Below the pieces are notes generated by a model. The model did not search any database and was not told the origin of the DNA. It worked only from the letters and a program-made list of their open reading frames with translations. Position numbers and translations under genes: made by a program. A stretch of 32,000 nucleotides of DNA. Origin: Geobacter metallireducens GS-15 (GTDB taxonomy: Bacteria > Desulfobacterota > Desulfuromonadia > Geobacterales > Geobacteraceae). The stretch lies in the NCBI RefSeq assembly GCF_000012925.1, contig NC_007517.1, positions 3,090,001-3,122,000 of the forward strand. The letters run 5' to 3'. Within the stretch, counting starts at the first letter, position 1, and each line of letters begins with the position of its first letter. This document shows, in pieces, positions 1 through 31,305 of the stretch.

Positions 1-805
1 ACCTGACGAGACGGACCCGCTCCGGGGTGAGCCCCGCGACAGGGAGAATGTCGAGGAGTTGGGGGAACTCCCGCCAGGTGTCGCGGGTGTAGTTCCCGCC
101 GATGGCGATGCCGATCAGGCCGCACACCTCCCGCAGGTTGGCGATGATCGCGGCAAAGCTCCCCTCTCCCGAGACAAAGGGACGCAGCCGGTCATGGATT
201 TGCGGCGGGCCGTCGAGGGTCACCTTGGCGCCGTCCAGGCCGAGGGGGAGAAGATCTTTCACCAGCGTCCGGGTGAGGAGGGTACCGTTGGTGACCAGGC
301 TGAAGGAAAACCGGTCGCCGCCGGTCGCCCGCAGCGGTCCGGCGATCCGGCGGATCAGGTCGGGGCGCAGCAGCGCCTCGCCGCCGTAGAAATTGAGCGA
401 GACCCTCCGTCCCCGGGCCAGGTGTTCCCGCTCCACCAAGGATACGAAGAGGTCGGCGGTCTCCCCGTCCATCTGGCGCAGGCTCGGCTGATTCGCCTCG
501 AAGCAGTAAGGGCAGGCGAGGTTGCAGGCCCGGGTCAGGACCACCACGGCGCTGCAGCGGCGCCGCCGCGCGTTGATCCGGTCGAACCAGGCGAGCATCT
601 CCCGCTGCTCCGTTCCCGGGTCTTCGGCGAGAAAGCCGTGGCGGGAGAGGGTTTCGGCGGGCTTAGGCGAAAGGGTGCCGCCGCGGGCGGCTTCGAGGAG
701 GGGGGCGGGTACGCGGAGCACCGCTCCGGTGCGGCAGGAGAAGAGAATGAGATGGCCCGGCTGCTCCGTGCAGGGGAAGACTTTCACGTGGCGGGAGAGG
801 ATCAT
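1..805 (-). CDS. Radical SAM enzyme, probable peptide (RiPP) maturase; N-terminal 268 aa, 3' end beyond window
   Basis: The minus frame is open from the window edge to the ATG at 805-803. It is not in the ORF track because it runs off the window. My translation is MILSRHVKVFPCTEQ...RRRCSAVVVLTRACNLACPYCFEANQPS...LNFYGGEALL...GAKVTLDGPPQIHD. It carries the canonical CxxxCxxC motif at C94/C98/C101 and a GGE-like SAM motif. About 90 aa precede the cluster. The listed + ORF 59..847 is its antisense shadow. Confidence 0.85.
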   Translation of the reverse strand, partial: MILSRHVKVFPCTEQPGHLILFSCRTGAVLRVPAPLLEAARGGTLSPKPAETLSRHGFLAEDPGTEQREMLAWFDRINARRRRCSAVVVLTRACNLACPYCFEANQPSLRQMDGETADLFVSLVEREHLARGRRVSLNFYGGEALLRPDLIRRIAGPLRATGGDRFSFSLVTNGTLLTRTLVKDLLPLGLDGAKVTLDGPPQIHDRLRPFVSGEGSFAAIIANLREVCGLIGIAIGGNYTRDTWREFPQLLDILPVAGLTPERVRLVR

Positions 806-820
806 GGCTACCCCCAAAAG

Positions 821-845
821 AGCCGGGGGAACCCGTCCCCCGGCT
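821..845 (-). terminator. GC-rich hairpin with a short U-tract between the peptide gene and the radical SAM gene (leaky terminator/attenuator)
   Basis: The minus strand reads AGCCGGGGG-ACGGGTT-CCCCCGGCT followed by CTTTTG. That is a 9-bp stem with a 7-nt loop. It lies 30 nt after the peptide stop and 16 nt before the maturase ATG. Confidence 0.6.
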
Positions 846-875
846 AAATACACCGCACGCCATCGCAAGCATCCG

Positions 876-980
876 TTAAAAGAAGAAAGCAACACTCACC
901 GTGCAACAGGCCAGGGGCCCATCGGCCGACTCCTCAACCCCTTCGTCGAGAACAACCACTTCCTCACGTTCCTCAGTCAT
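876..980 (-). CDS. 34-aa candidate RiPP precursor peptide (acidic leader, Cys-Cys hydrophobic C-terminus)
   Basis: ATG at 980-978 and TAA at 878-876. My translation is MTEEREEVVVLDEGVEESADGPLACCTVSVAFFF. A GGAGG Shine-Dalgarno sits 8 nt upstream (aacGGAAGGAGGtgagcgccATG). It lies immediately upstream of, and co-oriented with, the radical SAM gene. It is too short for the ORF track. Confidence 0.7.
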   Translation of the reverse strand: MTEEREEVVVLDEGVEESADGPLACCTVSVAFFF

Positions 981-1131
981 GGCGCTCACCTCCTTCCGTT
1001 GACCTCGCCTTGGCGGCAGCAGCAAAATAACGGGTGACACAACAAAACTTTCCTGCTAAAAATCCGGAAAATTGTTCTCACCTCGCGCAACGTCAAATAA
1101 CCAGGACCCATAACATTCACAAGCAACTCAC

Positions 1132-3084
1132 ATGCCCGAATCGCCATCAATCAACGACGTTATTGAATCCTCCCACCCCCCCTTGGGGAGCCGGGCAAAT
1201 ACGTCGTTGATTCGCATGGTTATCTCGGCACTTCTCGTCTGTTTCACCCTTCTTTTCACCGGTGCCCCCCCCCTCCACGCCGCAGAGGAGAGTGACTCAA
1301 ATTTGTTGGAGCTCTACTACGAGCCCAGCGATTTGGCGGTATCAGCCGCCACCCGCTCCCCCCGCCCCCTTTCCCGCAGCGCCGAAGACATCACCGTGGT
1401 CACCGCCGCGGAGATCGAGGCCCAGAACGCCCATAACCTGGCAGAGGTGCTGAACAGGGTCCCCGGGGTCCAGGTCGACCTGCGGGGTGGACTCGTCACC
1501 GACTACTCGCTGCTGGGCTCCAGTTTCCGCCATGTCCTGGTCCTCGTGGATGGCGTCTCCATGAGCAATCTGTCCGACAACGCCGCGGTCATCGCCCAGA
1601 TCCCGGTGGGGAACATCGAACGGATCGAAATCGTGAAGGGGCCGGCCTCCACGGCCTGGGGCTCCGCCCTGGGGGGGGTCATCAACGTTATCACTAAATC
1701 CCCCCGGGAAACTGCCATCCCCGGCGGGTCCGCCTCCTTCTCCGGGGGGGAGCGCGGCACCCGCGACGCCCAAGGCGAGCTGACCGGGACCATGGGACGG
1801 CTGGGCTACTACCTCTCGGGCGGCAACGTCCGGTCCGACGGCTTCCGCCCCCATAATGCCTCCGACAGCAACAACCTCTATGCCAAGCTCCTCTGGAGCC
1901 TCCGCGACAAGGGGAGCATCCGCTTCACCATCAACTACCTCAAGGGTGCAGCGGGCGAAGGGGTCTTCCCGCTCCCCGCCCGGCTGCTCCCCATTCTGTC
2001 CGAAGGCACAGTCACCTCCGATTTAGAGACAAGCCGACTCACCTCGACCCTTGCCCTGAATTACCACCTCACCGAGCGGCTCGCCCTTGACCTTGCTCTC
2101 AAAGGCTCCCTCCTTGACGCGGATAGCAGGCGTTACTTCCTGACTTCCGGCGACACATTCCAACTCGTCGACAATAAGGAGGAAGCCGCCGGAGCGAGTG
2201 CTCTCCTCACGTGGCGGCAGGGGCTCCACACGGTGGTCGGCGGCATGGATTTCGACCACGGCCACACAAAAACCAGTAGCGACACCTTCACCCTGCTCGG
2301 CACCTTCCCCGCGCCGAGCGAGGGGACCAACGACAAGTGGGGCTTCTTCCTGAACGACACCATCGCCTGGGAGCGGTTCACCCTCACCCCGGCGCTGCGT
2401 TATGACCGGACCAGCCGCGATGGCGAGTTCTGGAGCCAGAGCCTCGGGGCAACCGTCAACCTCACCGACCGGACCCTCCTGCGGGCCAACTACGCCCGGG
2501 GGTACAGCCTGTCGACCATCAATTTCGACCCGGCCTTCACCAACGAACGGATCTGGGCAATCCACGCGGGAATCGAGACGACGGAAATCCCCTTCCTCTG
2601 GCTCAAGGCGGGATGGTTCCGCAACACGGCCCGGGATGTCGCCGTCAACGGTGAACGGCTGAGACTGCTCAAGGAAGGGTTCGAGGTGGAGGCCCGCACC
2701 ACCCCCTTCTTTGATACCTGGCTCTCCCTGGGCTACGTCTTCATCGACGCCAGGAACGCCGACACCGACCGGCGGCTTCAGGAAATTCCCCGCCAGACGT
2801 GGGACCTGGGGCTCCACTATGACGACCGCACCTTCCGGGGCGCCCTCCTGGGGCACTATATCTGGTGGAACGAACCCTCGACGAGGGGCGGCATTGCGTT
2901 CAATGCCCGCTACGATGACTTCATCTGGGACCTGAACCTGGGGTGGAAGGCCTACAAGGGTCAAAACGCCGAAGCGGAGCTCTTCTTCACGGGCCACAAC
3001 CTGTTCAACGGCAGGCAGTACACGAACGAAATCTTCGTCAACCCCAGCCGCTGGTTCGAAGGCGGCCTCCGCATCAAGTGGTAA
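1132..3084 (+). CDS. TonB-dependent outer-membrane receptor (small, ~620-650 aa)
   Basis: Plug-domain signature DITVVTAAEIEAQNAHNLAEVLNRVPGVQV and IERIEIVKGPAS, a beta-barrel-type sequence, and a terminal aromatic residue (GGLRIKW). The signal peptide MVISALLVCFTLLFTGAPPLHA/AEE suggests the true start may be the ATG at 1216. Confidence 0.9.
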   Translation: MPESPSINDVIESSHPPLGSRANTSLIRMVISALLVCFTLLFTGAPPLHAAEESDSNLLELYYEPSDLAVSAATRSPRPLSRSAEDITVVTAAEIEAQNAHNLAEVLNRVPGVQVDLRGGLVTDYSLLGSSFRHVLVLVDGVSMSNLSDNAAVIAQIPVGNIERIEIVKGPASTAWGSALGGVINVITKSPRETAIPGGSASFSGGERGTRDAQGELTGTMGRLGYYLSGGNVRSDGFRPHNASDSNNLYAKLLWSLRDKGSIRFTINYLKGAAGEGVFPLPARLLPILSEGTVTSDLETSRLTSTLALNYHLTERLALDLALKGSLLDADSRRYFLTSGDTFQLVDNKEEAAGASALLTWRQGLHTVVGGMDFDHGHTKTSSDTFTLLGTFPAPSEGTNDKWGFFLNDTIAWERFTLTPALRYDRTSRDGEFWSQSLGATVNLTDRTLLRANYARGYSLSTINFDPAFTNERIWAIHAGIETTEIPFLWLKAGWFRNTARDVAVNGERLRLLKEGFEVEARTTPFFDTWLSLGYVFIDARNADTDRRLQEIPRQTWDLGLHYDDRTFRGALLGHYIWWNEPSTRGGIAFNARYDDFIWDLNLGWKAYKGQNAEAELFFTGHNLFNGRQYTNEIFVNPSRWFEGGLRIKW

Positions 3085-3104: not shown

Positions 3105-3968
3105 ATGAACCGACTGATCCTCCACATACTCGCTGTACTGCTCCTCTGGGGCTTCCCGGCTTTCGCCGCGGAAGTCGTGGTGGTGCAGGGCGAGCGCCTG
3201 GCACCCTTCGAGGCCGCATTCCACGGCTTCAAGGACACGGCCGGCGTGCGTTCCGTGGAGCGGTTCGTGCTCTCCGACCTTCGGGGTGCCGACGTGGTCC
3301 GGGCCGTGCGGGAGGCCCGCCCCCGGCTGGTGCTGGCAGTGGGGCGCGACGCCCTGGCGAGGGTGCGGGATATTCGCGAGATTCCGGTGGTCTACGTGAT
3401 GGTGCCCCCCTCCGCAACCGCCGACGCCACGGGACGCAACGTGACCGGCATCGAGATGGACGTGCCGGCGGAGCGCTACCTCTCCCTCTGCGGAAATGGG
3501 CTGGGTGGCAAGCGTGTGGGGATCATCTACAACCCGGCCAAGACCGGTGCGCTGGTGCAGGAGGCCCGCCAGGCGGCGGAGCGGCTCGGCATCACCCTGG
3601 TGGTCCGCAGGGCCGACGACCCCCGCGAGGCGGTCCGTGAGCTTTCCTCCCTCAAGGGGAAGGTGGACACCCTCTGGCTCCTCCCCGACCCGACGGTGGT
3701 GACCCGCGACACCATGGAGTCCTTCGCCCTCTTCTCCCAGCAAAACCGGGTGCCGGTGGTGGCCTTTGCCGCCAAGTACCTGCAGCAGGGGGCCGTTGCC
3801 GCCATCGAGGTGGACCCGGCCGACATGGGACGGCAGGCCGGCCGCATGGCCCGCCGCATCCTGGACGGCGCTTCGCCCCAAGCGGAAACGCCGGAGCATC
3901 CCGCAAAGACGCGCCTGAAGGTGAACCACTCCGTGGCGCAGCACTTGGGCATCACGTTGAAGGAGTAA
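3105..3968 (+). CDS. Periplasmic ABC-type substrate-binding-like protein (PF04392/ABC_sub_bind type)
   Basis: Signal peptide MNRLILHILAVLLLWGFPAFA/AE. The sequence pattern (VGIIYNP..., VDTLWLLPD, VPVVAF) is typical of this family as I remember it. It starts 20 nt after the TBDR stop. Confidence 0.7.
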   Translation: MNRLILHILAVLLLWGFPAFAAEVVVVQGERLAPFEAAFHGFKDTAGVRSVERFVLSDLRGADVVRAVREARPRLVLAVGRDALARVRDIREIPVVYVMVPPSATADATGRNVTGIEMDVPAERYLSLCGNGLGGKRVGIIYNPAKTGALVQEARQAAERLGITLVVRRADDPREAVRELSSLKGKVDTLWLLPDPTVVTRDTMESFALFSQQNRVPVVAFAAKYLQQGAVAAIEVDPADMGRQAGRMARRILDGASPQAETPEHPAKTRLKVNHSVAQHLGITLKE

Positions 3969-3974
3969 CCCCCC

Positions 3975-5546
3975 ATGGATAAGAACTCCCCCTGTGATTC
4001 TTCCCAACCGGCGAACCCCACCCCGCCACGGGACGTCCGCGGGAGCTTTCGCGCCAAACTCTTCTCGGCGACAGCCGCCGGCATCGTTATCCTCTCGGCT
4101 GTTTCCATCGTCTTCTTCCTCACCAACCAGCACGCCATACTCCACGAGAATCTTGTCACCGAGGGTCAGCTCCTGACCCGCCTCCTTGCCCATAACGCCC
4201 GTCTGGGGCTCTTTGCCGCCAACCGCGACCAGCTCGCCGACCTGGCCGATGGGGTGATACGGACCCCCGACGTGCTGGAGGTAACCATCGTCGACCGGGA
4301 TGGCCGGACCCTGGCCCGCGCGGCGCGGCAATCGGTGAGCGATGGCGGGAGCAGCGCCGCCCTGACGCAGGAGTTTTCGGAGCCGGTCTTCGCGCTCCAG
4401 GGCAAGGGGAACGATGATGACCTCTACTTCTCGCCGGCGCAACAGCCGCCCCAGGCCGGCCAGCGCCTCGGGACGGTGCGGGTCGTGATGGATGAAGAGA
4501 AGGTCCATGCCCACGTCCGCCGCCTCACCGCCACGGCGGTCATTGGGGCGCTGGCGTTTCTGGCCGTTGGAATGGGGCTGGTCTACTTGATCATCCGCGG
4601 CATCACCCGTCCCCTCACCCACCTGTCGGATGAGGTCAGGGCCATCGAAAGGGGAGAGACGAACGTACTCCTCCCGGTGGAATCGGAGGACGAGATCGGC
4701 GAGCTCACCGCATCCTACAACCGGATGGTGAACGCCCTCAGGCAGCGGCGGGAGGAACGGGACGAGGCGGAGAGGCAGTTGCGGGAGCTGAATGCCCGTC
4801 TGGAGGATAAGGTCATTGACCGGACCGCCCAGCTGGAGGCGGTGAACCGGGAACTGGAGTCGTTCAGCTATTCGGCCGCCCATGACCTGCGGGCGCCGCT
4901 CTTGCGCCTGAACGGCCTCTGCAAGGCCCTGAAGGAGGACTGCGGCGAGCGGCTCGACGAGGAGGCCCGCGCGTATATCCGGCGCATCGCCACGGTGGGA
5001 AGGCAGATGGAGCGGGTGATCTCGACCATGTCGACCCTGTTCAACGTGCAGCGGCGGGGAATGACCTGCCGGGAGATGGACCTGGGCGCCATGGTGCGGG
5101 CGATCGTCGCGACGCTGCGGCAGGCCGATCCCCTGCGGGAGGTGGCGCTGACGGTGGGGCCAGAAGTGACGGCCCACGGCGACACGGAACTCATCTGGAC
5201 GGCCCTGGAGAACATGGTGGGGAACGCCTGGAAGTTCACGTCACGCACCCCCGATGCCCGCATCGAGTTCGGCAGCATCGAGCGGGACGGGGAGAAGGTC
5301 TTCCTCCTGAAAGACAACGGGGTCGGTTTCGACATGGCCTATGTGGGCAAACTGTTCAAGCCCTTCGAGCGGCTCCACGGCCCCGATGAGTTCCCCGGCA
5401 CCGGGGTGGGGCTCGCCATCGTTCACCGGGTCATGGAACGCCACGACGGCCGCGTCTGGCTCGAAAGCACGCCGGGGGCCGGAACCACCTGTTACTTCAC
5501 TCTGCCTTCCTGCTCGACGTCGACCACGAAAACAACATCTTTTTGA
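3975..5546 (+). CDS. Membrane sensor histidine kinase (two TM segments, HAMP, HisKA, HATPase_c)
   Basis: HAMP region (ITRPLTHLSDEVRAIERGE...IGELTASYNRMVNAL), coiled coil, H-box [20 protein letters not shown]-box LENMVGNAWKF, and G-boxes DNGVGFD and GTGVGLAIV. Confidence 0.9.
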   Translation: MDKNSPCDSSQPANPTPPRDVRGSFRAKLFSATAAGIVILSAVSIVFFLTNQHAILHENLVTEGQLLTRLLAHNARLGLFAANRDQLADLADGVIRTPDVLEVTIVDRDGRTLARAARQSVSDGGSSAALTQEFSEPVFALQGKGNDDDLYFSPAQQPPQAGQRLGTVRVVMDEEKVHAHVRRLTATAVIGALAFLAVGMGLVYLIIRGITRPLTHLSDEVRAIERGETNVLLPVESEDEIGELTASYNRMVNALRQRREERDEAERQLRELNARLEDKVIDRTAQLEAVNRELESFSYSAAHDLRAPLLRLNGLCKALKEDCGERLDEEARAYIRRIATVGRQMERVISTMSTLFNVQRRGMTCREMDLGAMVRAIVATLRQADPLREVALTVGPEVTAHGDTELIWTALENMVGNAWKFTSRTPDARIEFGSIERDGEKVFLLKDNGVGFDMAYVGKLFKPFERLHGPDEFPGTGVGLAIVHRVMERHDGRVWLESTPGAGTTCYFTLPSCSTSTTKTTSF

Positions 5547-5692
5547 ATAACACGGAGAAACGGAGAGCACGGAGAAGCCCATACCCTGTAGTTTTTGTTC
5601 AGCAATCAGAAGACACCATCAACCAAGTTGATTGTGACTGACATACCCGATTTTGCTCCGTGTCCTCCGTCTCTCCGTGTTATATTTTTTTT
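5547..5692. repeat. ~137-bp inverted-repeat element with triple-heptad arms, followed by T8
   Basis: The left arm at 5547-5574 is ATAACACGGAGAAACGGAGAGCACGGAG, which contains 3x ACGGAGA. The right arm at 5656-5683 is CTCCGTGTCCTCCGTCTCTCCGTGTTAT. Its reverse complement matches the left arm at 25/28 positions. The run TTTTTTTT at 5685-5692 follows. Confidence 0.8.
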
Positions 5693-5746
5693 GAATTATT
5701 TCCTCTTTACGACAACTATTCCATCCCTTGCAATCGTGAGGTTCCC

Positions 5747-7762
5747 ATGCCCACTGAAATACGACGCTCCGTCTGCCCCTACGACTGCCCCGACACCTGC
5801 GGCCTCCTGGTGGAGGTGGAGGACGGCCGGGCCATGCGCGTTTCCGGCGACCCGGAGCACCCCTTCACCCGGGGCACCCTCTGCCCCAAGATGCTCCACT
5901 ATGAGAAGACGGCCCACTCCCCCCTGCGCCTCACAACCCCCCTCGTCCGCATCGGCCCCAAGGGGAAGGGGGAGTTCCGCGCCGCCACCTGGAACGAGGC
6001 TGTTGCCATAATCGCGGCCCGCTGGCGGGAGATTATCTCCGGCTACGGGGCCGAGGCAATCCTCCCCTACTCCTACGCCGGAACCATGGGGCTCGTGCAC
6101 CGCAACTGCGGCCACGCGTTCTTCCACCGGCTGGGGGCGTCACGGCTCGACAGGACCATCTGCTCGCCGGCCAAGGAGGCGGGGTGGAAGGCAATCATGG
6201 GGGATACGCCGTCCCCCCACCCGGACGAGGTGGCGGAAAGCGATCTGGTGATCCTCTGGGGGATCAATGCGGCGGCCACCAACATCCACTTCCTCCATGG
6301 AGTCAGGGAGACAAGGAAGCGGGGCGCCCAGGTCTGGCTCATCGACACCTATGAGACCCCCACCGCCGCCGCGGCGGACCGGGTCATCCTCTCCCGCCCC
6401 GGGAGCGACGGCGCCCTGGCCCTGGGGATGATGCACGTCATCGCCCGGGAAGGGCTCATCGACAAGGCCTTCGTGGAGGAGCGGATCCAGGGCTTTGCCG
6501 AACTGGCGGAGCAGATCCTCCCCGGCTACCCGCCGGAGCGGGTGAGCGCCATCACCGGTGTTCCCGCTTCGGTCATCGAAGATATGGCGCGCTGCTACGC
6601 CCGGGCGCAAGCCCCCTTCATCCGGCTGGGGAGCGGGCTCTCCCGCTACGGCAACGGCGCCATGACGGTCCGCACCATCTGTGCGCTGCCGGCCCTGGTG
6701 GGGGCCTACGGAAAGCGGGGGGGAGGGCTCCTGGCCTCCACCAGCACCGGCGCCGCCTTTGCCATGAAGGAGGTGACCCGGGAGGACTTCATGCTGCGCC
6801 CCACCCGGATCGTGAACATGAACCGCCTGGGGCACGCCCTGACGGAGCTGTCCGACCCGCCAGTGAAGTCCCTCTACGTCTACCACTCAAACCCGGCATC
6901 GGTGACCCCGGACCAGAACGCGATCCTTCGAGGACTTGCCCGCAACGACCTCTTCACCGTGGTGCACGATCGGTTCATGACCGACACGGCCCGCTGGGCC
7001 GACGTGGTGCTCCCCGCCTGCTCGTCCCTGGAGACGGGGGATGTCTACCGGGCCTACGGCACCTACTGCATCCAGCGTGCATGGCCGGCCATCCCGCCAG
7101 TGGGGGAGAGCAGGTCCAACTGGGACACCTTCGCGTTTCTGGCCGAGGCCATGGGGTTCGACGAACCGTACTTCAGCCAGACCGAGGAGGAGATCATCGA
7201 GCACCTTGTAGCGATCCCCGCCCCCATGAGGGATGGGATCGACCTGGCCCGCTTCGAGGAAGGGAAGGGGGTGGAGCTTCCCCTGGCCCCGGACGCCCCC
7301 CGCACCTTCCGGACCCCGTCGGGGAAGGTGGAAATCCTCAACCACCGGGAGCCGGAACCCCTTCCCCGGCATCTCCCCACCCACGAGGAAGAGGGGAATC
7401 TCCCCCTCATGCTCATGACCGCGCCGACCCTCTACGCCCTCAACGCCTCCTTCTACGAGCAGGATGAACTACGGGAAAGACAGGGGGGGATGCGCCTCAT
7501 GGTGAACCCGGTCGAGGCCGGGACGCGGGGAATCGGGGACGGCGAGCGGGTGATCGCCTGCAACGAACGGGGCAAAGTGGAGTTCACCCTTGCGGTGACC
7601 GACCGGGTCCCTCCCGGCGTGGCCGTGGCCGAGGGAGTCTGGTGGTCGGAGCACGCCCCCGGCGACCGGACCGTGAACGCCCTCACCAGCCAGCGCCTCA
7701 CCGACCGGGGGAACGGGAGCACGTTCTATGACACGAGGATAGAGGTGAAGAAAGCGAGATAG
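5747..7762 (+). CDS. Molybdopterin (bis-MGD) oxidoreductase family protein, cytoplasmic (no Tat signal)
   Basis: The N-terminal 4Fe-4S motif is MPTEIRRSVCPYDCPDTCGLLVEV...GTLCPKM. It has the length and conserved blocks of the COG0243 family. I prefer the ATG at 5747 because the 5660 extension reads through the repeat element. Confidence 0.85.
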   Translation: MPTEIRRSVCPYDCPDTCGLLVEVEDGRAMRVSGDPEHPFTRGTLCPKMLHYEKTAHSPLRLTTPLVRIGPKGKGEFRAATWNEAVAIIAARWREIISGYGAEAILPYSYAGTMGLVHRNCGHAFFHRLGASRLDRTICSPAKEAGWKAIMGDTPSPHPDEVAESDLVILWGINAAATNIHFLHGVRETRKRGAQVWLIDTYETPTAAAADRVILSRPGSDGALALGMMHVIAREGLIDKAFVEERIQGFAELAEQILPGYPPERVSAITGVPASVIEDMARCYARAQAPFIRLGSGLSRYGNGAMTVRTICALPALVGAYGKRGGGLLASTSTGAAFAMKEVTREDFMLRPTRIVNMNRLGHALTELSDPPVKSLYVYHSNPASVTPDQNAILRGLARNDLFTVVHDRFMTDTARWADVVLPACSSLETGDVYRAYGTYCIQRAWPAIPPVGESRSNWDTFAFLAEAMGFDEPYFSQTEEEIIEHLVAIPAPMRDGIDLARFEEGKGVELPLAPDAPRTFRTPSGKVEILNHREPEPLPRHLPTHEEEGNLPLMLMTAPTLYALNASFYEQDELRERQGGMRLMVNPVEAGTRGIGDGERVIACNERGKVEFTLAVTDRVPPGVAVAEGVWWSEHAPGDRTVNALTSQRLTDRGNGSTFYDTRIEVKKAR

Positions 7763-7820
7763 CAAGTAGCGAAGTAGCAAGTAGTAAGAAACAATAACTA
7801 TCTCGTTATCTCGCTATTTT
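7753..7820 (+). terminator. Stem (AGCGAGATA/TATCTCGCT) enclosing heptad repeats, followed by ATTTT; probable terminator of the oxidoreductase gene
   Basis: 7753-7761 AGCGAGATA pairs with 7807-7815 TATCTCGCT. The loop holds GCAAGTA/GCGAAGTA/GCAAGTA/GTAAG repeats at 7761-7788 and a duplicated TATCTCG. A T4 run follows. Confidence 0.45.
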
Positions 7821-7822
7821 AC

Positions 7823-7849
7823 TAAAGTTCCCTCAATGCCAGCCGATAC
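7823..7849 (+). promoter_or_regulatory. Sigma28 (FliA)-type promoter for cheV
   Basis: The sequence is TAAAGTTC-N11-GCCGATAC. The enterobacterial consensus is TAAAGTTT-N11-GCCGATAA, so 14/16 positions match with exact spacing. It lies ~55 nt upstream of the cheV ATG. Confidence 0.75.
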
Positions 7850-7903
7850 GAGTATCAGGCCTTCGGTCGGAAGGCAGATCACAGCGACGAGGGGAACGCG
7901 CCC

Positions 7904-8842
7904 ATGGCTGACCACACTATCCTGCTGGAAAGCGGCACCAACGAGCTCGAGATCGTCGAGTTCATGCTCAATGAACACAACGAAAAGGGGGAGGCGATCC
8001 CCTCCTACTTCGGCGTCAACGTGGCCAAGGTCCGGGAGATCATCCGCAAGCCCCAGATGTGGAAGGTTCCCAATGCCCATCCCGCCATCGCGGGGATGAT
8101 GAAGCTCCGCGACAAGGTCATCACGGTGGTTGATCTGGCCACCACCCTCGGCAAGAACATGAGCTGCCTCGCCCCGGACCGGGTCATCGTCCTGGAATTC
8201 AACCGGATGATGATCGGCGTGCTGGTGAACGGCGTTTCTCGCATCTACCGCATCTCGTGGGAGCAGGTGGAGCCGCCGGTACGGGCCATCGAGTCGGCCT
8301 ACGTGACCGGCATGGTGAAAATGGAGGACCGGATCATCCTGATCCTCGACTTCGAGAAGATCGTGGGCGAGATCTGCTGCATGGACGTCCTCCACGAGAT
8401 CGGCCATGACCAGCTCCTGGAGGGGGCCATCCTCGACCGGAGCCGCCACCGCATCCTCGTGGCGGACGACTCGACCTTCATCCGCAACAGCATCTGCTCG
8501 TCGCTGCGGGCCGCCGGCTACAACGTGGAGGAGGCGGAGAACGGCGAGGATGCCTGGAACATGATCGTCGCCAAGCTCTCTCACTGCCGGGCCGCCGGAA
8601 CTCCCCTCAGAAGCGAGCTGGACCTCCTCATCACCGACGTGGAGATGCCGAAGATGGACGGACTCCACCTCACCTCCCTCGTGAAGAAGGACGACGTGCT
8701 CAAGGAGCTGCCGGTACTGATCTTCTCGTCCCTGGCCACCGAGGATAACCGGCGCAAATGGAAGGACCTGGGGGCGCTCGATATCGTCACCAAGCCCGAC
8801 CTGCCGAACCTGGTGAAGATCGCGGATGGTGTCATGAACTGA
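7904..8842 (+). CDS. cheV: Chemotaxis coupling protein CheV (CheW-like domain plus receiver domain)
   Basis: The N-terminal CheW-like region is LLESGTNELEIVEF...VINLRGKV-like (MKLRDKVITVVDL). The C-terminal REC domain is ILVADDSTFIR...LLITDVEMPKMDG...SSL...KP. Confidence 0.9.
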   Translation: MADHTILLESGTNELEIVEFMLNEHNEKGEAIPSYFGVNVAKVREIIRKPQMWKVPNAHPAIAGMMKLRDKVITVVDLATTLGKNMSCLAPDRVIVLEFNRMMIGVLVNGVSRIYRISWEQVEPPVRAIESAYVTGMVKMEDRIILILDFEKIVGEICCMDVLHEIGHDQLLEGAILDRSRHRILVADDSTFIRNSICSSLRAAGYNVEEAENGEDAWNMIVAKLSHCRAAGTPLRSELDLLITDVEMPKMDGLHLTSLVKKDDVLKELPVLIFSSLATEDNRRKWKDLGALDIVTKPDLPNLVKIADGVMN

Positions 8843-8867
8843 ACGCCCCCATATCCGCATGTAAAAA

Positions 8868-8895
8868 GCCGCCCAGTCAAAAAGGGCGGCTTTTT
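8868..8895 (+). terminator. Rho-independent terminator after cheV
   Basis: GCCGCCC-agtcaaaaa-GGGCGGC followed by TTTTT. An A-run precedes the stem, so it may work in both directions. Confidence 0.8.
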
Positions 8896-8955
8896 ACGTT
8901 TGGGAGCTGCAATCAAGGAGAAAGGCCGTTCTCATTCTTCGCAGGCTACGGTAGT

Positions 8956-10080
8956 ATGCCGGGTGCCATGCACGACGAACCGGACCATCCCGAACTCTCC
9001 ATCACCGTCCCGACCCTGAATGAGGCCGAGGGGCTCGAACGCTTCTTCGCGATGCTCTCCGCCCAGCAGGGGGTCAGGTTTGAGCTGGTGATCGCCGACG
9101 GCGGCTCCACGGACGGGACGCCGGAGAGCGCCCGGAGGCTGGCCGCTGCCACCCCCTTCGCGGCAACGGTCATCGAAACCGGCCGCGGACGTGGACGGCA
9201 GATGAATGCCGGCGCCGCGGCTGCCGCGGGCGACACCCTTCTCTTTCTCCACGCCGACTGCGCCTTCCCCGATCCCCTGGCCCTGCGGACCGCCCTGGAT
9301 GCCTTCACGCAGACGGTTGCCGCCGGGGGAAGCCACCGGGTGGCCGGGCACTTCCGGCTCCGCTTCGAGCGCACAGATTCCGCCCCTTCCCTCCCCTACT
9401 ATTTCTACGAGTGGAAGGCCCGGCTCCACCGGCCCGGATGCACCCACGGCGACCAGGGGCTCCTCCTCGGGCGGCGCTTTTTTGCCGAGGCAGGCCCCTT
9501 CGACGAGTCGTTCCCGATCCTGGAGGACGTGGGGCTGGCAGAGCGGATCGCGGCCCTGGGGGAGTGGCTGCTCCTGCCGGCAGAGATTGTCACCTCGGCC
9601 CGCCGCTTCGAGGCGGAGGGATTGCGGGAGCGCCAGACCCTGAACGCCCTCCTCATGAACTTCGCGGCCATGGGCTGGGATCCGTTCCTGGCGGAACTGC
9701 CACGCCTCTACCAGAGCCAGGACCGGGCCGGACGCCTCCTCCTCGGTCCGGTACTCCGCCTCATCGCCAGGTTGCTCCGCCCCCTTCCCCGCCGGGAGCG
9801 CGGGAGGCTCTGGCGCGAGACCGGGCGTTACGTGCGGGCCAACGCCTGGCAGATTCCCTTTTTCCTCGACGTGCGGCGCCACTTCCGGCAGGGGACGCCC
9901 GTGGGCGAAGGAGAGACGCCGCGCCTCGATCTCCACGACCGCATCTTCGACCGGCTCACCGAAAACGGGGCCGGCCATCGGGCAACGGCGCTCCTGGTCT
10001 GGATCTGGTTCCGGCTGTCGCTCCTCCGGGAGCCCCTTACACCACCAGCCGCGCGAAATCCGGAAGGGAACGGATCGTGA
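8956..10080 (+). CDS. Family 2 glycosyltransferase with a C-terminal extension
   Basis: LSITVPTLNEAEGLERFF...FELVIADGGSTDGT...GRGRQMNAGA...LLFLHADC is typical of GT2. The ORF-track start at 8758 overlaps cheV and the terminator, so I chose the ATG at 8956 (alternative 8968). Confidence 0.8.
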   Translation: MPGAMHDEPDHPELSITVPTLNEAEGLERFFAMLSAQQGVRFELVIADGGSTDGTPESARRLAAATPFAATVIETGRGRGRQMNAGAAAAAGDTLLFLHADCAFPDPLALRTALDAFTQTVAAGGSHRVAGHFRLRFERTDSAPSLPYYFYEWKARLHRPGCTHGDQGLLLGRRFFAEAGPFDESFPILEDVGLAERIAALGEWLLLPAEIVTSARRFEAEGLRERQTLNALLMNFAAMGWDPFLAELPRLYQSQDRAGRLLLGPVLRLIARLLRPLPRRERGRLWRETGRYVRANAWQIPFFLDVRRHFRQGTPVGEGETPRLDLHDRIFDRLTENGAGHRATALLVWIWFRLSLLREPLTPPAARNPEGNGS

Positions 10081-10909
10081 CCGGGCCGTGGCAGATGAAG
10101 TCACCATCCACCTGCACCGCCTTGTTGCCGCCGATGGTCACGGTATCGGCATCGAAGACCGTGACCCCCGCACCGGCGGCCCCGCGCCCGGCAGCCACCC
10201 TCAGGGCGAGCCGGAGGTAATCGCGCCGCCTCCCCGCCTCGACGCAGACCACCCGGAAGCGGGGCTCGAAGAGGCTTGCGCCGGGGGCCAGGACGAAGCT
10301 CCCGCCGTAGCGGGCCGCATTGCAGACGATGACGCTGTGGCAGGAGCGGCGCGCCCCCGCCGCTTCCACCTCCATGGGCCTCCCATCCCAGGCGGAGAGG
10401 GTCCGAAGGGCCGAGAGGAGGTAGGCCCCCTTGCCGAAGCGCTTTTTCTCCTCGCCAAGCACCCCCTCCACCACGAAGCCGTCGAACCCGGCGCCGGCCA
10501 TGAGAAAGAAGCGGCGACTGACGCCGAACCCTTCCAGGAGCCCCACCGACAGGGGGCGGGCCTCCCGCCGGATGATCCGGCGCACCGCCTCGTCCACGGA
10601 GCCGATCCCCAGCTCCCGGGCACAGACATTGGCGGTGCCCAGGGGGAGGAAGGCCAGGGTCGCCCTGCCCGGCACGAGGCCGTTGATGACGCCGTTCATG
10701 GTTCCATCCCCCCCGCCCGCCACGATAAAGGGATGATCCTCCTCCGCGCAGGCCCGGGCGGCAAAGGCGGCGGCATCGTCGGGACCGCCGGTGAGGAGCA
10801 CTGAGGGGGAGAAGCCGGCTGCGGCCAGGCGAGCCGTCACCCGGTCGACCAGTGACGCGGAATAGCTCCCCGACGTGGGATTGATGATGAGGGTGCAGGA
10901 ACGGGGCAC
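10037..10909 (-). CDS. Diacylglycerol kinase-family lipid kinase (YegS/BmrU-like)
   Basis: LIINPTSGS..., GGDGTMNGVINGL and LPLGTANVCAREL are DAGK catalytic-domain motifs. Confidence 0.85.
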   Translation of the reverse strand: MPRSCTLIINPTSGSYSASLVDRVTARLAAAGFSPSVLLTGGPDDAAAFAARACAEEDHPFIVAGGGDGTMNGVINGLVPGRATLAFLPLGTANVCARELGIGSVDEAVRRIIRREARPLSVGLLEGFGVSRRFFLMAGAGFDGFVVEGVLGEEKKRFGKGAYLLSALRTLSAWDGRPMEVEAAGARRSCHSVIVCNAARYGGSFVLAPGASLFEPRFRVVCVEAGRRRDYLRLALRVAAGRGAAGAGVTVFDADTVTIGGNKAVQVDGDFICHGPVTIRSLPDFARLVV

Positions 10910-11064
10910 GAAACAACTCCTTGTGAAATGGCATGTGGCGGCAGTATAGCACCCCCCTCGGGAGAGGGACCACGATTTTGATGGACGGCCGTGTCAACCG
11001 GCATTGCCGATGGGGCGTTTTCGATACTATACGAGTAACCCATCAAACAAAAGGAGGTACTGAG

Positions 11065-11547
11065 ATGAAACGGATCAGTTTTGTGCTGGCGGCCGCAGCG
11101 GTCGTCGTCTCTCTTGCCGGAATCAACCACGGGGCATGGGCCCAGATCGGGCCGGGAGATGGAGCGGGCATGGGTGCGGGAACGGGAGCGGGGACAGGGC
11201 CCAAGAGGGGCGCGGGCAAGATGCGGAAAATGGACCCGGAACGGATGCTCCAACGAATGGAGGCAAACCTCGGGCTCAGCGCCGAGCAGAAGGAGAAGAT
11301 CAGGCCGATTCTCCAGGAGCAGATACAGGAGATGCAGGCCATCCGCAACGACACCACCCTCACCCGCGTCCAGAAGCGTGAAAAGATGCAGGAGATGCGC
11401 GACAAGTATCACGCAAGAATCGGTGAGCAGCTAACCGCCGAACAGCGCCAGAAAGCCGATGACATGCGGAAAAAGGCCAAGGAGCGGTGGGAAAAGCGGA
11501 AAAACCGGGTGAAACAAGGTCCGAAGCCGACGAGTGATGTCAAATAG
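11065..11547 (+). CDS. Periplasmic Spy/CpxP-like (LTxxQ-repeat) protein
   Basis: AAGGAGG SD at 11051-11057. Signal peptide MKRISFVLAAAAVVVSLAGINHGAWA/Q. LxxEQ motifs LSAEQKEKIRPI and LTAEQRQKADDM. Highly charged helical sequence. Confidence 0.7.
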   Translation: MKRISFVLAAAAVVVSLAGINHGAWAQIGPGDGAGMGAGTGAGTGPKRGAGKMRKMDPERMLQRMEANLGLSAEQKEKIRPILQEQIQEMQAIRNDTTLTRVQKREKMQEMRDKYHARIGEQLTAEQRQKADDMRKKAKERWEKRKNRVKQGPKPTSDVK

Positions 11548-11746: not shown

Positions 11747-12808
11747 GTGATGAAGGGGTTTATTAAGCTGTTTTTCGCCGCAATCGTTCTTTGCGTTTTA
11801 GTCGTCGGATGCGGGAGCGGAGGGGGTGGGGGAGGAGTCACCGCCATCGATCTCATTCGGCCCGAAATATCCCAGACCCTGCCGGCCAACGGCGCCACCA
11901 ACGTAGGGACCACCTCCCCCATCATCATCACCTTCAGCGAACCGATGAATCAGGACTCTGTGAAAGCCGCCTTTTCATTGGCCACAGGTTCAACCACTAT
12001 TCCTTGCACCTTCAGCTATAACGGCACCACGGCAACGTTCACCCCCCCTGCCCTCAACGGCAATACACCATATACCGCCACCATCGCCGCCACTGCCAAG
12101 GACATGGCGGGAAACAGCCTGGGAGGCGATCATGCCTGGACGTTCACAACCGGCATAGGGCAGGACACCACGCCGCCCACCGTCCAGTCCTATGCCCCGA
12201 CCGGCACCGCCGTCGGCATCAACTCCACCATCGCCATAACCTTCAGTGAACCGATGAATACCGACTCCGTAAAAGCTGCGTTCTCGCTGACCCCGACCGC
12301 GGACCCGACCAAGAAAATTTCCGGAACTTTCAGCTTCATCGGTGATACGGCGGTCTTTACACCGGACACTCTCCTTGACTATTATACCTCCTATACAGTC
12401 ACCATCGCTACAACAGCGACAGATCTGGTCGGTAACAACATGACAGCACTTCCCCCCTGGAATTTCACTACTAGACCACCTCCCGCCAAGGACACTGAAG
12501 CACCAATCGTGAGTCCCGGATTAGAATTTCCCTTGGACGGCTCCACCGACGTGCCCCGCAATACGCCAATATCCGTCTCGTTCAATGAACCGATAGCCCC
12601 CTTCTACTACGGCTCCATCAATGGTTTCCCGACGAAAGTGACCATCGACTACACCACCAACACCGTTACCATGAAGCCCACGACCCTGCTGACAGCCAAC
12701 ACTACCTACACGGTCTCCATCAGGGTGACAGACCTGGCCGGCAACTCAATGGCCACTACATACCAGTGGCAATTCACGACAGGCGCTACCCCGACATCCC
12801 TTCCGTGA
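11747..12808 (+). CDS. Lipoprotein with three SbsA/Big_5-type Ig-like repeats
   Basis: Lipobox LVVGC followed by a Gly run. Three ~100-aa repeats each contain P..V....P..G...V.....I.ITFSEPMN.DSVKAAFSL...F.P...L...T.YTVTI...A.D..GN......W.FTT. Confidence 0.8.
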   Translation: MMKGFIKLFFAAIVLCVLVVGCGSGGGGGGVTAIDLIRPEISQTLPANGATNVGTTSPIIITFSEPMNQDSVKAAFSLATGSTTIPCTFSYNGTTATFTPPALNGNTPYTATIAATAKDMAGNSLGGDHAWTFTTGIGQDTTPPTVQSYAPTGTAVGINSTIAITFSEPMNTDSVKAAFSLTPTADPTKKISGTFSFIGDTAVFTPDTLLDYYTSYTVTIATTATDLVGNNMTALPPWNFTTRPPPAKDTEAPIVSPGLEFPLDGSTDVPRNTPISVSFNEPIAPFYYGSINGFPTKVTIDYTTNTVTMKPTTLLTANTTYTVSIRVTDLAGNSMATTYQWQFTTGATPTSLP

Positions 12809-28371: not shown

Positions 28372-29592
28372 TCAGCGTATTCTTTCAACCTGGGCCTGCT
28401 CCAGCAGGCTGTCGATGTGGAGTTTCATGCGCTGGATTTCCGCCACGATTCGCTCCAGGCACTGCTCCCCCCCTTCGCCGATCTGCCCGGCATGATCTTC
28501 CGCAAGGATGCGGCTGAAACTCTCCATATGCCGCAGGGGGGCCCGCAGGTCATGGGAGACCGAATAGCTGAAGGACTCCAGTTCCCGGTTGGAGTTCTCG
28601 AGCTGCACCGTCCGCTCGGTGACCCGCAGTTCAAGGTCGGCATTGAGGCGGCGCAACTCGTCCTCGGCACGCTGCCGCTCCCGGATTTGCGCCTCCAGCT
28701 GCCGGTTGGCCTTCTCCAGGTCCGCCGTCCGCAGGAGGACCTCGTGGCGGAGCTTTTCCGGTTGTCTCAGCATGAGATAGGCGAGAAGCGCCAGGATGCC
28801 GCTGATGCCGCCAACCATGAGGTATTCCACGTAAAGGAACGGGGAAGTCTGCCACCCCTGTTTCGGCGCCACGGCCAGCTTCCAGGTGCCGTTGGGGACG
28901 TCGATGGTGCTTTCCACCGGCGCCTGGAGCGGTCCGTCAGAGCGGGCAATGGATTCCCACCGGCCCGTGTCCGGGTTGAGCCTGGTGAGCTCATACCCGT
29001 ACCCCCCCTTATCGAGAGCTTCCAGATTGCTTGCGGCGAGGAGGTCCCGGAGGCGCATCAAGACATTGACGAAGCCCCAGAAACGCTCCCCCCTGCCCGG
29101 TTCGGGGAGAAAAACCGCCAGCCTGCCAACGGCTCCTACCCCCCCTTGCCTCAGCTCGAAGGGGCCGGCAAGGGTCATCTGCCGGCTCTCGATCGCCCGT
29201 TGCGCCTCGGTGCGACGGAGGGGGTCGCTGAGGAGGTCGTGGCCTATGGCCTTTTCGTTGCCGGCAAGGGGGTAGATGGTGGTCATGACCCCGGCCGGGG
29301 CGAGTTGCAGGCTGCTGATACCGCCGTAGGTCCGGATCATCTCGGCAGCGAGGGCATCAAAGTCCTTAATGGTGCCGGCCTGGCGCAGAATGGCGGCAAG
29401 GGCGTAGGTGGCGGAGAGGGAGCCGGATATCTGGCGCTCCAGCGAAAAGGCGGCACCCGCGGCGAGCTGGGCCACGTTCCGGCGCTGCTCGCGGCAACGC
29501 CCTTCTTCCACCTGGCGCACGAAGACCGACCCGGCTCCCAGAAACAAAGCGAAGAGCAGGATCGCCCCCCGTATCGGACCGCCATGCTTCAT
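28372..29592 (-). CDS. CHASE-type periplasmic sensor plus TM plus coiled coil plus HisKA(DHp) protein lacking an HATPase_c domain
   Basis: It is a paralog of the next gene: [18 protein letters not shown]...RAIESR...[11 protein letters not shown]... with H-box [19 protein letters not shown]. The ORF ends at ...[11 protein letters not shown], right after the DHp, and has no N, G1 or G2 boxes. Confidence 0.85.
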
Positions 29593-29613: not shown

Positions 29614-31305
29614 CTACTCCTCGCCCAGGGTAAAGAAGAAGGTGGCTCCACGGCCGACCGCCCCCTCCGCCCAAATCCGCCCCCCGTGACGGAGGATTAT
29701 CCGCCGCACCGTGGCCAGGCCGACGCCGGTCCCCTCGAACTCCGCGGCGCCGTGCAGCCGCTGGAACACGCCGAAGAGCCTGTCGGCGTATTTCATGTCG
29801 AAGCCGGCGCCGTTGTCCCGGACGAAAAAAAACCGCTCCCCCTCCTCGGCCTCCACCCCGAATTCGATCAGCGCCCCCTCTTTTCCCCCGGTATATTTCC
29901 AGGCATTGCCCAGAAGGTTTTCCAGGGCAACCCGCAGAAGCCCCGCATCGCCCGGCGCCATAACCCCGTCGGCAATACGGAAGGTCACGGAGCGGCCAGG
30001 ATCGCCCCCCTGGAGATCCGCGGCGATTTCCCGGGCCATGGCGCCAAGATCGACGCTCTGGCGAACCAGTTCGCCGGCGCTCACCCGGGACAACTCGTGG
30101 AGATGGCCGATGAGCTCCTTCATCCGGTCACCGGCCTTGCATATCCGCATCAGGATCTGCATGCCGTTTTCGTCCAGGGAGCCGGCGTGCTCTTCCCTGA
30201 GGGTCCGGGTAAAGCCTTCAATGGTGTTCAGAGGCGCCCGAAGGTCGTGGGAAACCGAATAGGTGAACAATTCCAGCTCCTGGTTGACGGCCGCCAACTG
30301 GGAAGTCCTCTCGGCAACCCGCTGCTCCAGATCGGCATTGAGACGCCGAACCTCCTCCTCGACCCGCGCCCGCTCCCGTGCTTCCTCTTCGAGACGCCCC
30401 CTGGCCGTCTGGAGCTCGGCCGTCCGTTTTGCCACTTCGATCCGCAACAGCGCCGGCTGCCGCTGGAACAGGTAGGCAAGACTCCCCATCGCCAGGCTGA
30501 CCAGGATAACCGTGGCGCCGTACCACACTATTCCCGAGCGCGTGAGCCATCCCCCCGACGGCGACACCGAGAGTACCCATTTCCCGTTGGGCACGTCGAA
30601 GGCAAACTCCACCGGATCTGCCAGGAGAGTCCCCCCCCCTTGGGCAACTACAATTTTTTCACCGCTGCCGGGATGGAGGCGGGATACCCGATACGCATAG
30701 CCGTTTTTTGCGAGAAGGTTCAGGTTGCTGGCGTCCATAAGGGTCCGCAGCCGGATGATGGCCGCCGTAAACCCCCAGAACCGCTCGCCTCCCCGGCCGT
30801 CGGAAAGGAACACCGCCTGCCGCCCCACAACCGCCTTCCCCCCCTGTTTGAGCTCGAAGGGACCATCGAGGGAAAGCCGGCGGGACTCGATGGCCCGCAG
30901 CGCTTCGAAGCTGCGAACAGGGTCCCGGAGGATGTCGAACCCGACGGCCTTTTCGTTGCCGGCAAGGGGGTAGACCTCGGTTATGACCCCCTCGGGCACC
31001 AGCTGGAGAGTGTCGATGCCGCCGTAGACCTTGATCATCTCCGCCGCCAGGGAGGCGAAATTCTCAATTCTGCCCTGTTGTCGGAGGATGGCGGCCAGGG
31101 CGTTGGTGGCCGACAGGGAGCGAAAAAGCTGATGATCAAGGGAATGGGCCGCGTTGGCGGCAATCTGGGACACGGTTTGGCGGTACTCCTGCTTCCGCTC
31201 GCGCGCCAGCTCGCCGGCAAGTACCGCGCCCATCCCCATGAAAAGCGAAAATACCAGCAGTGCCCATAGGGTCGCTCTGTTCAGACTCACCGGCTTGTGC
31301 TCCAC
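29614..31305 (-). CDS. CHASE-type sensor histidine kinase (complete: sensor, TM, HisKA, HATPase_c)
   Basis: [18 protein letters not shown]...GPFELKQGG, H-box [20 protein letters not shown]-box LENLLGNAWKYT, and G-boxes DNGAGFD and GTGVGLATV. Confidence 0.9.
   Translation of the reverse strand: MEHKPVSLNRATLWALLVFSLFMGMGAVLAGELARERKQEYRQTVSQIAANAAHSLDHQLFRSLSATNALAAILRQQGRIENFASLAAEMIKVYGGIDTLQLVPEGVITEVYPLAGNEKAVGFDILRDPVRSFEALRAIESRRLSLDGPFELKQGGKAVVGRQAVFLSDGRGGERFWGFTAAIIRLRTLMDASNLNLLAKNGYAYRVSRLHPGSGEKIVVAQGGGTLLADPVEFAFDVPNGKWVLSVSPSGGWLTRSGIVWYGATVILVSLAMGSLAYLFQRQPALLRIEVAKRTAELQTARGRLEEEARERARVEEEVRRLNADLEQRVAERTSQLAAVNQELELFTYSVSHDLRAPLNTIEGFTRTLREEHAGSLDENGMQILMRICKAGDRMKELIGHLHELSRVSAGELVRQSVDLGAMAREIAADLQGGDPGRSVTFRIADGVMAPGDAGLLRVALENLLGNAWKYTGGKEGALIEFGVEAEEGERFFFVRDNGAGFDMKYADRLFGVFQRLHGAAEFEGTGVGLATVRRIILRHGGRIWAEGAVGRGATFFFTLGEE

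Follow-up and report, generated by a model that had tools for sequence, protein, structure and literature searches.

The geopeptide cassette of Geobacter metallireducens lies at the left end of a 32,000-nt stretch of strain GS-15 (contig NC_007517.1, positions 3,090,001 to 3,122,000; the window hereafter). It is a two-gene operon encoding a 34-aa precursor peptide and a 446-aa radical S-adenosylmethionine (SAM) enzyme, with a conserved hairpin between the two genes and with genetic coupling to a TonB-dependent receptor, a PF04392 solute-binding protein and a HAMP-containing histidine kinase. The locus is already named in public annotation, and the geopeptide family was known before, defined by sequence and adjacency only; its models reportedly go back to Haft and Basu in 2011. 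No open-access paper was found that uses the name geopeptide, the family accessions or the protein accessions. The only open-access article retrieved on peptides made by ribosomes and modified after translation (RiPPs) matured by SPASM enzymes in Geobacter was a perspective on SbtM, a different system. The present analysis adds that the precursor family is broad and of fixed geometry, that a terminator-like element is conserved between the two genes, and that receptor, binding protein and kinase are linked to the cassette. The features of the cassette itself are as follows.

876..980, minus strand: geopeptide precursor gene, 34 aa (translation, TIGR04229, RefSeq identity, conservation)
989..993, minus strand: GGAGG ribosome-binding site, 8 nt before the peptide ATG (read from the sequence)
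816..845, minus strand: intrinsic-terminator-like hairpin, presumed partial terminator, between the precursor and maturase genes
1..805, minus strand: 5' part of the gene for the geopeptide radical SAM/SPASM maturase (TIGR04280), comprising 268 of its 446 codons; the remainder lies left of the window
548..805, minus strand: N-terminal 86-residue domain of the maturase, resembling a RiPP recognition element (RRE), presumed leader binder (AF2 model, PDB matches)
503..526, minus strand: CNLACPYC, the CX3CX2C motif (C94, C98, C101) for the [4Fe-4S] SAM cluster; these three Cys are invariant in 20 homologues

The peptide gene begins with an ATG at 980..978, runs for 34 codons on the minus strand and ends with a TAA at 878..876. 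Its product, MTEEREEVVVLDEGVEESADGPLACCTVSVAFFF, is composed of an acidic leader with the motif VVVLDEG, a Cys-Cys pair at residues 25-26 of 34 and a hydrophobic eight-residue tail (TVSVAFFF). A first-pass annotation, made by a model from the letters of the DNA, had pointed out this acidic, Cys-Cys-containing frame with its hydrophobic end and the GGAGG Shine-Dalgarno sequence before it, and had suggested the name geopeptide for what it took to be a RiPP-type locus; all of these proposals held up. The peptide scores 34.5 bits (cut-off 30) with TIGR04229 ("geopeptide", an NCBIfam equivalog), its residues 8-30 spanning the 22 positions of the model in full, and it is identical to the RefSeq protein WP_004511725.1, 'geopeptide' of G. 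metallireducens. The gene stands directly upstream of the enzyme gene, whose product passes TIGR04280, and the two are separated by a spacer of 70 nt. A Pfam search with the peptide returned no match, and a hidden Markov model (HMM) built from 46 related peptides found no precursor copy in the 32-kb window beyond the known open reading frame (ORF). No Rfam family was matched between window positions 600 and 1400; the leader region is therefore not a known riboswitch.

Related loci were collected by a metagenome scan with a 20-sequence enzyme alignment as query, which yielded 79 loci; a single-query scan of genome contigs had returned one close relative (Geomesophilobacter, L001) and otherwise distant radical SAM genes only. 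Precursors were recognized by a regular expression in 44 loci and by eye in six more, four of these six with Lys-rich leaders, giving 50 peptides in total, 46 of which were aligned. Conservation of the small frame next to homologous enzymes, on which the first-pass annotation had made its reading depend, was thus observed in 44-50 loci. The frames in the 44 loci encode 27-45 aa and mostly end 47-130 nt upstream of the enzyme gene, with a few up to ~300 nt away. Among the aligned peptides the leader follows the pattern hydrophobic-x-hydrophobic-L-(D/E)-x-G with an invariant Gly, and the Cys-Cys pair is invariant as well. The geometry of the precursors is fixed within narrow limits: the distance from Gly to Cys-Cys is 8-13 residues with a mode of 11, and the tail after Cys-Cys is 7-12 residues long in 49 of the 50 peptides, most commonly eight (22/50). 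The sequence of the tail is variable, with small residues at positions +2/+3 and Arg or Lys common at +8, and no conserved acceptor residue was found in the tails of the collected precursors. When the window was compared with its closest relative, whose enzyme is 97% identical, both Cys codons were found to differ synonymously only and five of the eight tail residues were different, which indicates purifying selection on Cys-Cys and fast change of the tail. A closely related tail reads SVSFGFVI. A sigma-54 promoter occurs upstream of the peptide genes in two of 42 loci only and was dropped as a common feature.

The family extends further than its curated models. TIGR04229 failed to match five of six related precursors or candidates, and this model therefore recognizes only part of the precursor diversity. 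At the enzyme level, four loci (L080, L087, L088 and L089) encode proteins just 27-35% identical to the query that are still preceded by a Cys-Cys peptide, so the system reaches beyond the curated family; two of them (L087, with the enzyme of 27% identity, and L088) also have a TonB-dependent receptor nearby. With such relatives, many of them metagenomic, the earlier description of the system as Geobacter-specific does not stand. Two unusual precursor types were also observed. In a locus of the G. sulfurreducens / anodireducens type, the precursor position is taken by the ORF MKKSTRIAVLNAGSIRNPNQPGYMCVVIFGRVA (L026:7780-7884), a candidate without a TIGR04229 match that keeps the leader motif, the spacing and the eight-residue tail and has Met-Cys in place of Cys-Cys, which would make the second Cys the indispensable one. 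In four other loci (L044, L048, L059 and L061) the leaders are long Lys-rich repeats, for example KKKATKKKATKKK, and these are followed by the usual Cys-Cys and a tail of ~9 residues, i.e. the same core geometry.

The spacer between the two genes is occupied by a hairpin (845..821) that starts 30 nt past the peptide stop codon, with a stem of 10 bp (845..836 / 830..821; eight G-C and two A-U pairs), a loop of 5 nt (835..831) and the sequence C-UUUU directly behind it (820..816). Its position and short U-tract agree with the earlier description, which had given the stem as 9 bp. In the statistics of the window alone the element is inconspicuous: a terminator scan found one site when 1.5 were expected by chance, and the fold z-score is -1.1, with 30 of 200 shuffled sequences folding equally well. 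We take it as real because its position is conserved in relatives. Among 39 related peptide-enzyme spacers, 37 have a stem of 7 bp or more without a break (10.0 in shuffled sequences), and 29 have at least four U within 8 nt after the stem (1.7 in shuffles). At least five U are found in 21 (0.4 in shuffles), and the fold z-score is below -2 in 29. In the closest relative the hairpin differs by a loop base only, and across loci the sequences vary while the position and the G-run/C-run character are kept. The hairpin is thus a conserved feature of the family by position, in agreement with its earlier interpretation as an element between precursor and enzyme. Partial terminators between precursor and enzyme genes are known in other RiPP operons. 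Since the hairpin fills nearly the whole spacer, the enzyme gene would have to be expressed by read-through.

The maturase gene starts with the ATG at 805, and its frame leaves the window at the left end. The full gene was obtained from a contig that is 100% identical to window positions 1-1000 (L107:6361-7701, minus strand) and encodes 446 aa. Against TIGR04280 ("geopeptide radical SAM maturase", cut-off 400), the 268-aa fragment scores 414.9 bits and the full-length protein 673.3 bits, and the sequence is exactly that of RefSeq WP_004511726.1, 'geopeptide radical SAM maturase'. The core is recognized by Pfam PF04055 (56.4 bits) and contains the CxxxCxxC motif reported before, preceded by an extension of ~86 residues (~90 in the earlier estimate). 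The SPASM domain that had been sought in the part beyond the window is present at residues 322-400 (TIGR04085, 49.8 bits against a cut-off of 27), and in the 97% identical enzyme P0001 the canonical pattern CX13GX4C ... CX2CX5CX3C ... C can be read. Eight Cys outside the core motif are invariant in the 20 homologues, among them C322, C341, C376, C379, C385, C389 and C405. The nearest NCBIfam families are all radical SAM/SPASM maturases that are named for Cys-containing or Cys-rich peptides (TIGR04463, CefB, PapB, Clo7bot, QhpD, CcpM and SCIFF). All thioether synthase models considered are missed by a wide score difference (SCIFF 68.9 vs 425, PapB 108.1 vs 340, RumMC 56.7 vs 720, QhpD 90.7 vs 453). 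Identity as an anaerobic sulfatase maturase (anSME) was rejected at 58.9 bits against the cut-off of 349.45 for TIGR03942, and the non-RiPP assignment that the first-pass annotation had named as a possible outcome is thereby set aside. The name GeoRSP, which it had mentioned together with geopeptide and which we take to denote a separate system, was not borne out, as no model of that name is among the 25 best NCBIfam matches and a PqqD gene is not conserved nearby.

An HMM profile search gave CteB as the nearest solved structure (E 5e-33), and for an AF2 model of P0001 (pLDDT 85.5) the best full-length PDB match was also CteB (5why/5wgg, E 1.5e-20), followed by TigE, anSME and SuiB. The N-terminal 86 residues, modelled alone (AF2, pLDDT 88.9), adopt a predicted beta3-alpha3 arrangement of three strands followed by helices, and the top PDB matches of this model are all RRE proteins, namely the lasso-peptide RRE TbiB1 with its leader (E 0.011, probability 0.98), LynD, CteB and TigE (TMq 0.56), at weak E-values. 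Pfam gave no PqqD match for this domain by sequence. The modelled topology is the one expected of the RRE-like extension suggested earlier, and the domain is likely an RRE.

The genomic neighborhood provides the strongest contextual clue, overlooked in the first-pass annotation: a divergent TonB-dependent receptor gene followed by genes for a periplasmic binding protein and a membrane kinase.

1132..3084, plus strand: TonB-dependent receptor (650 aa as read) with Plug and a barrel of the 22-strand type (Pfam PF07715, PF00593), transcribed divergently from the peptide gene
3105..3968, plus strand: periplasmic solute-binding protein, PF04392 (ABC_sub_bind; Pfam), with ABC permease and ATPase genes not nearby
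3975..5546, plus strand: membrane sensor histidine kinase with HAMP, HisKA and HATPase_c domains (Pfam)

All ORFs from -7 to +6 kb of 53 family loci were clustered, and only three neighbor families were conserved: the TonB-dependent receptor (42 loci), the PF04392 solute-binding protein (31) and the HAMP-HisKA kinase (24). No PqqD, peptidase or leader protease, exporter, immunity gene or DNA-binding regulator was conserved in these neighborhoods. The linkage was also counted in loci with enough upstream sequence. Of the 43 loci with 600 bp or more, 42 have the receptor no further than 4 kb from the pair and 41 no further than 1 kb. The binding protein occurs in 20 of the 23 loci that extend 4.5 kb or more upstream, and a kinase homologue in 13 of the 19 that extend 6 kb or more. 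Receptor orientation is not fixed, being divergent in 17 and co-directional in 20 of the 43 informative loci. On the other side of the cassette, the gene after the maturase is convergent (an AAA_26, Pta-N-like protein on L107), so the operon consists of peptide and enzyme only, and the PqqD-like, protease and exporter partners once expected behind the enzyme are not there.

Receptor, binding protein and kinase, like peptide and enzyme, are identical to proteins of strain GS-15 or RCH3. NCBIfam searches with the three neighbors gave generic matches only, all far below cut-offs; a PDB sequence search with the receptor found similarity only in the plug domain, to BtuB and CirA; and shorter start choices for the receptor also exist in RefSeq. 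Relatives of the PF04392 protein with 33% identity are encoded beside HAMP transducers, a kinase in L110 and a chemoreceptor in L111, at sites that lack both the receptor and the radical SAM gene, and this association suggests that such proteins act as co-receptors for membrane transducers. Duplication of the receptor near the cassette was seen in three loci (L001:765-3403 and 7042-9623; L036:2363-6325; L064:2932-6450 and 8103-11137), accompanied in L001 and L064 by duplication of the binding protein. In one metagenomic geopeptide locus (L112:401-5010), a kinase and a sigma-54-dependent response regulator are encoded just downstream of the maturase.

Taken as a whole, we consider it somewhat probable that the cassette makes a peptide that is cross-linked, released, re-imported and sensed. 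In this scheme the N-terminal domain of the maturase would bind the precursor leader as a beta-strand, a 5'-deoxyadenosyl radical would take a hydrogen from a tail residue, and one or both Cys sulfurs, possibly held on an auxiliary cluster, would close one or two thioether rings of fixed size. The chemistry of the maturase is probably Cys-based cross-linking, as judged from its relatives. The thioether chemistry, a reasonable idea of the first-pass annotation, is proposed because the nearest families are named for Cys-peptide substrates and because the tail length is constrained; those among these families that are known to be characterized (PapB, QhpD and SCIFF/CteB) make thioethers. An alpha-carbon (sactionine-type) link would fit the variable acceptors better than beta- or gamma-carbon links to specific side chains. 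At the level of expression, the hairpin would end most transcripts after the peptide gene, so that precursor far exceeds enzyme and the latter is made by read-through. The mature peptide would leave the cell via machinery encoded elsewhere and would be returned across the outer membrane by the adjacent receptor, and the binding protein would then bind it in the periplasm and report to the kinase. Release, re-import and sensing are favored because importer, periplasmic binder and kinase are almost always adjacent, and the mature peptide may accordingly be described as a putative secreted signal or ligand carrier rather than a classical bacteriocin. In a bolder version, Gram-negative metal reducers would possess a self-contained circuit with cross-linked geopeptide as its diffusible ligand, complete with a strain-specific tail, re-import by a dedicated TonB-dependent receptor and sensing by PF04392 protein and HAMP kinase, and the peptide would be a RiPP autoinducer or a metal carrier; this we put forward tentatively, as doubtful but possible. 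To our knowledge, a TonB-gated signalling layout of this kind has not been described for radical SAM RiPPs.

Several observations weigh against the proposed cross-linking, release and sensing. The chemistry is argued from relatives only, and the tails, with no conserved acceptor, are ill-suited to beta- or gamma-carbon (ranthipeptide) links to Asp, Glu or Thr. The eight invariant Cys outside the core could fully ligate both auxiliary clusters, as in anSME, which would leave the substrate Cys without an open site, and with the Met-Cys candidate of the G. sulfurreducens type, a double cross-link cannot hold for every precursor. For the RRE assignment the PDB matches are weak (best E 0.011) and Pfam gave no PqqD match, and the hairpin of the window, with its short U-tract, is not significant alone. 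No exporter or leader protease is linked in the 53 loci, so secretion is assumed. A DNA-binding regulator linked to the kinase is likewise missing from the window, and at the G. pickeringii locus there is just a stand-alone receiver.

Among other explanations, the least credible takes the small ORF for a product of chance and the enzyme for a radical SAM protein unconnected with RiPPs, for instance an anaerobic sulfatase maturase with a distant substrate. The genome, being GC-rich, is full of spurious ORFs and anSME is among the fold matches, but the peptide passes a curated HMM, its geometry is conserved in ~50 loci, its Cys codons change synonymously and the enzyme is far under the anSME cut-off; this explanation is already refuted, and the ORF is confirmed as a genuine gene. 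The role of the neighbors leaves more room for disagreement. Receptor, binding protein and kinase might form an independent sensor of an external ligand, such as a metal or an aromatic compound, and geopeptide would then be what this sensor controls rather than its ligand, either a product that stays in the cytoplasm or periplasm or a toxin of narrow spectrum. PF04392 relatives do adjoin HAMP kinases or chemoreceptors at sites that lack both receptor and radical SAM gene, solved PF04392 proteins bind aromatic amino acids (PMC10443332), no exporter is linked, and the fast-evolving tail resembles bacteriocin or immunity-type diversification. Nevertheless, a TonB-dependent importer has stayed linked in 42 of 43 loci despite repeated rearrangement, which is more readily understood if the product itself is the ligand transported, and a regulated output fits poorly with a module that has no conserved DNA-binding regulator, no common sigma-54 promoter before the peptide genes and no conserved immunity gene. 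We regard an independent sensor as rather unlikely.

The chemistry at Cys-Cys might also be other than thioether formation, for example Cys oxidation or heterocyclization as by SbtM, epimerization, a C-C or C-O cross-link within the tail or a formylglycine-like residue. Radical SAM/SPASM chemistries are diverse, and a Cys peptide treated by SbtM, an enzyme of Geobacter and its relatives, becomes lighter by 4 Da (PMC9204691). The rank of anSME among the best fold matches, tails with no conserved acceptor and extra invariant Cys compatible with fully ligated auxiliary clusters would all accommodate such a reaction. It is made unlikely by the distance to the anSME cut-off, by a fixed tail length that suggests a ring-size constraint, and by the nearest families by score, which are Cys-peptide maturases whose members known to be characterized form thioethers. 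Finally, the peptide might be a mere scaffold from which a small Cys-Cys-derived molecule, perhaps a thiol-rich metal chelator, is excised, as with PQQ and mycofactocin, and then salvaged by receptor and binding protein. Only Cys-Cys and its spacing are invariant while the flanks vary freely, and PQQ, itself a cofactor that derives from a RiPP, has a TonB-dependent receptor (PqqU, with a model in NCBIfam; PDB 9c4o). A constrained tail length would, however, be needless for a part that is discarded. The PQQ and mycofactocin pathways moreover need several further enzymes (peptidase, oxidase and others), and here nothing but the radical SAM gene is conserved, which counts against excision; we judge it distinctly improbable. 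Cross-linking followed by release, re-import and sensing thus remains the reading that we favor.

When compared with known systems, the window represents the geopeptide family itself: both proteins pass the cut-offs of TIGR04229 and TIGR04280 and carry the corresponding RefSeq names, with no difference from the family as defined. The three-part enzyme (RRE-like N-terminus, radical SAM core and SPASM domain) and a Cys-containing substrate are shared with SCIFF/CteB, sactipeptides, ranthipeptides (PapB) and QhpD. In the geopeptide precursor, one pair of neighboring Cys is followed by a short tail of variable sequence, whereas the substrates in the SCIFF, PapB and QhpD systems have several spaced Cys with defined acceptors. 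SbtM, which acts in selenobiotic maturation, is likewise a radical SAM/SPASM maturase; it occurs in the same bacterial group and modifies a Cys (or Sec) of a short peptide (PMC9204691). It belongs to a separate family, however, with the substrate motif GGUG as opposed to the geopeptide Cys-Cys, and no selenobiotic model is among the best matches. For the layout of the neighborhood, the closest likeness is to methanobactin operons (MbnA/B/C, MbnT, MbnE and MbnIR), in which genes for a RiPP precursor and its modifying enzymes stand together with those for a TonB-dependent transporter, for a periplasmic binder and for signalling or regulation, and the product is secreted and re-imported (PMC3621798). 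The geopeptide cassette has the same three kinds of partner, and methanobactin operons provide a precedent for the proposed release and re-import. The differences are that MbnBC is not a radical SAM enzyme and is unrelated to the geopeptide maturase, that an exporter is usual in methanobactin operons and none was found in the geopeptide loci, and that a sigma/anti-sigma pair serves there, whereas geopeptide sensing would depend on binding protein and histidine kinase.

The fixed Cys-Cys geometry with its fast-changing tail, the conserved terminator and the near-obligate linkage to receptor, binder and kinase turn a hypothetical RiPP into concrete experiments. The family occurs in G. metallireducens and G. 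sulfurreducens, both genetically tractable model metal reducers. Should the peptide prove to be the ligand of the module, Gram-negative anaerobes would have a novel form of peptide signalling or scavenging; otherwise it is one more radical SAM RiPP.

Additional genes were noted around the cassette and elsewhere in the window. In the closest relative (L024:6186-6859) and in G. pickeringii (L025:9346-10019), a DUF4160 and DUF2442 pair follows the maturase; because the genome of the window itself and most loci lack this pair, it was dropped as a partner. A second radical SAM gene, encoding 441 aa, lies ~2.4 kb past the 3' end of the maturase gene, left of the window (L107:2677-4002), and in the same relative position in G. 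pickeringii (L025:12476-13801), where, as in G. metallireducens, it adjoins a chromate-transporter pair; its product has no NCBIfam match at E 1e-10. Directly after the kinase, the window encodes a molybdopterin oxidoreductase (5660-7762), and a gene of the same family follows the module in G. pickeringii (L025:1-1918). A 138-aa ORF (5595-6011) overlaps the start of the oxidoreductase gene and might correspond to the stand-alone receiver of G. pickeringii. Further along, a CheV-like protein with CheW and receiver domains (7904-8842) is followed by a glycosyltransferase of family 2 (8758-10080) and by a protein that carries three Big_5 Ig-like domains (11747-12808). Near the right end, two tandem ORFs for CHASE-domain histidine kinases were found on the minus strand (28372-29592 and 29614-31305), the first apparently without an ATPase domain.

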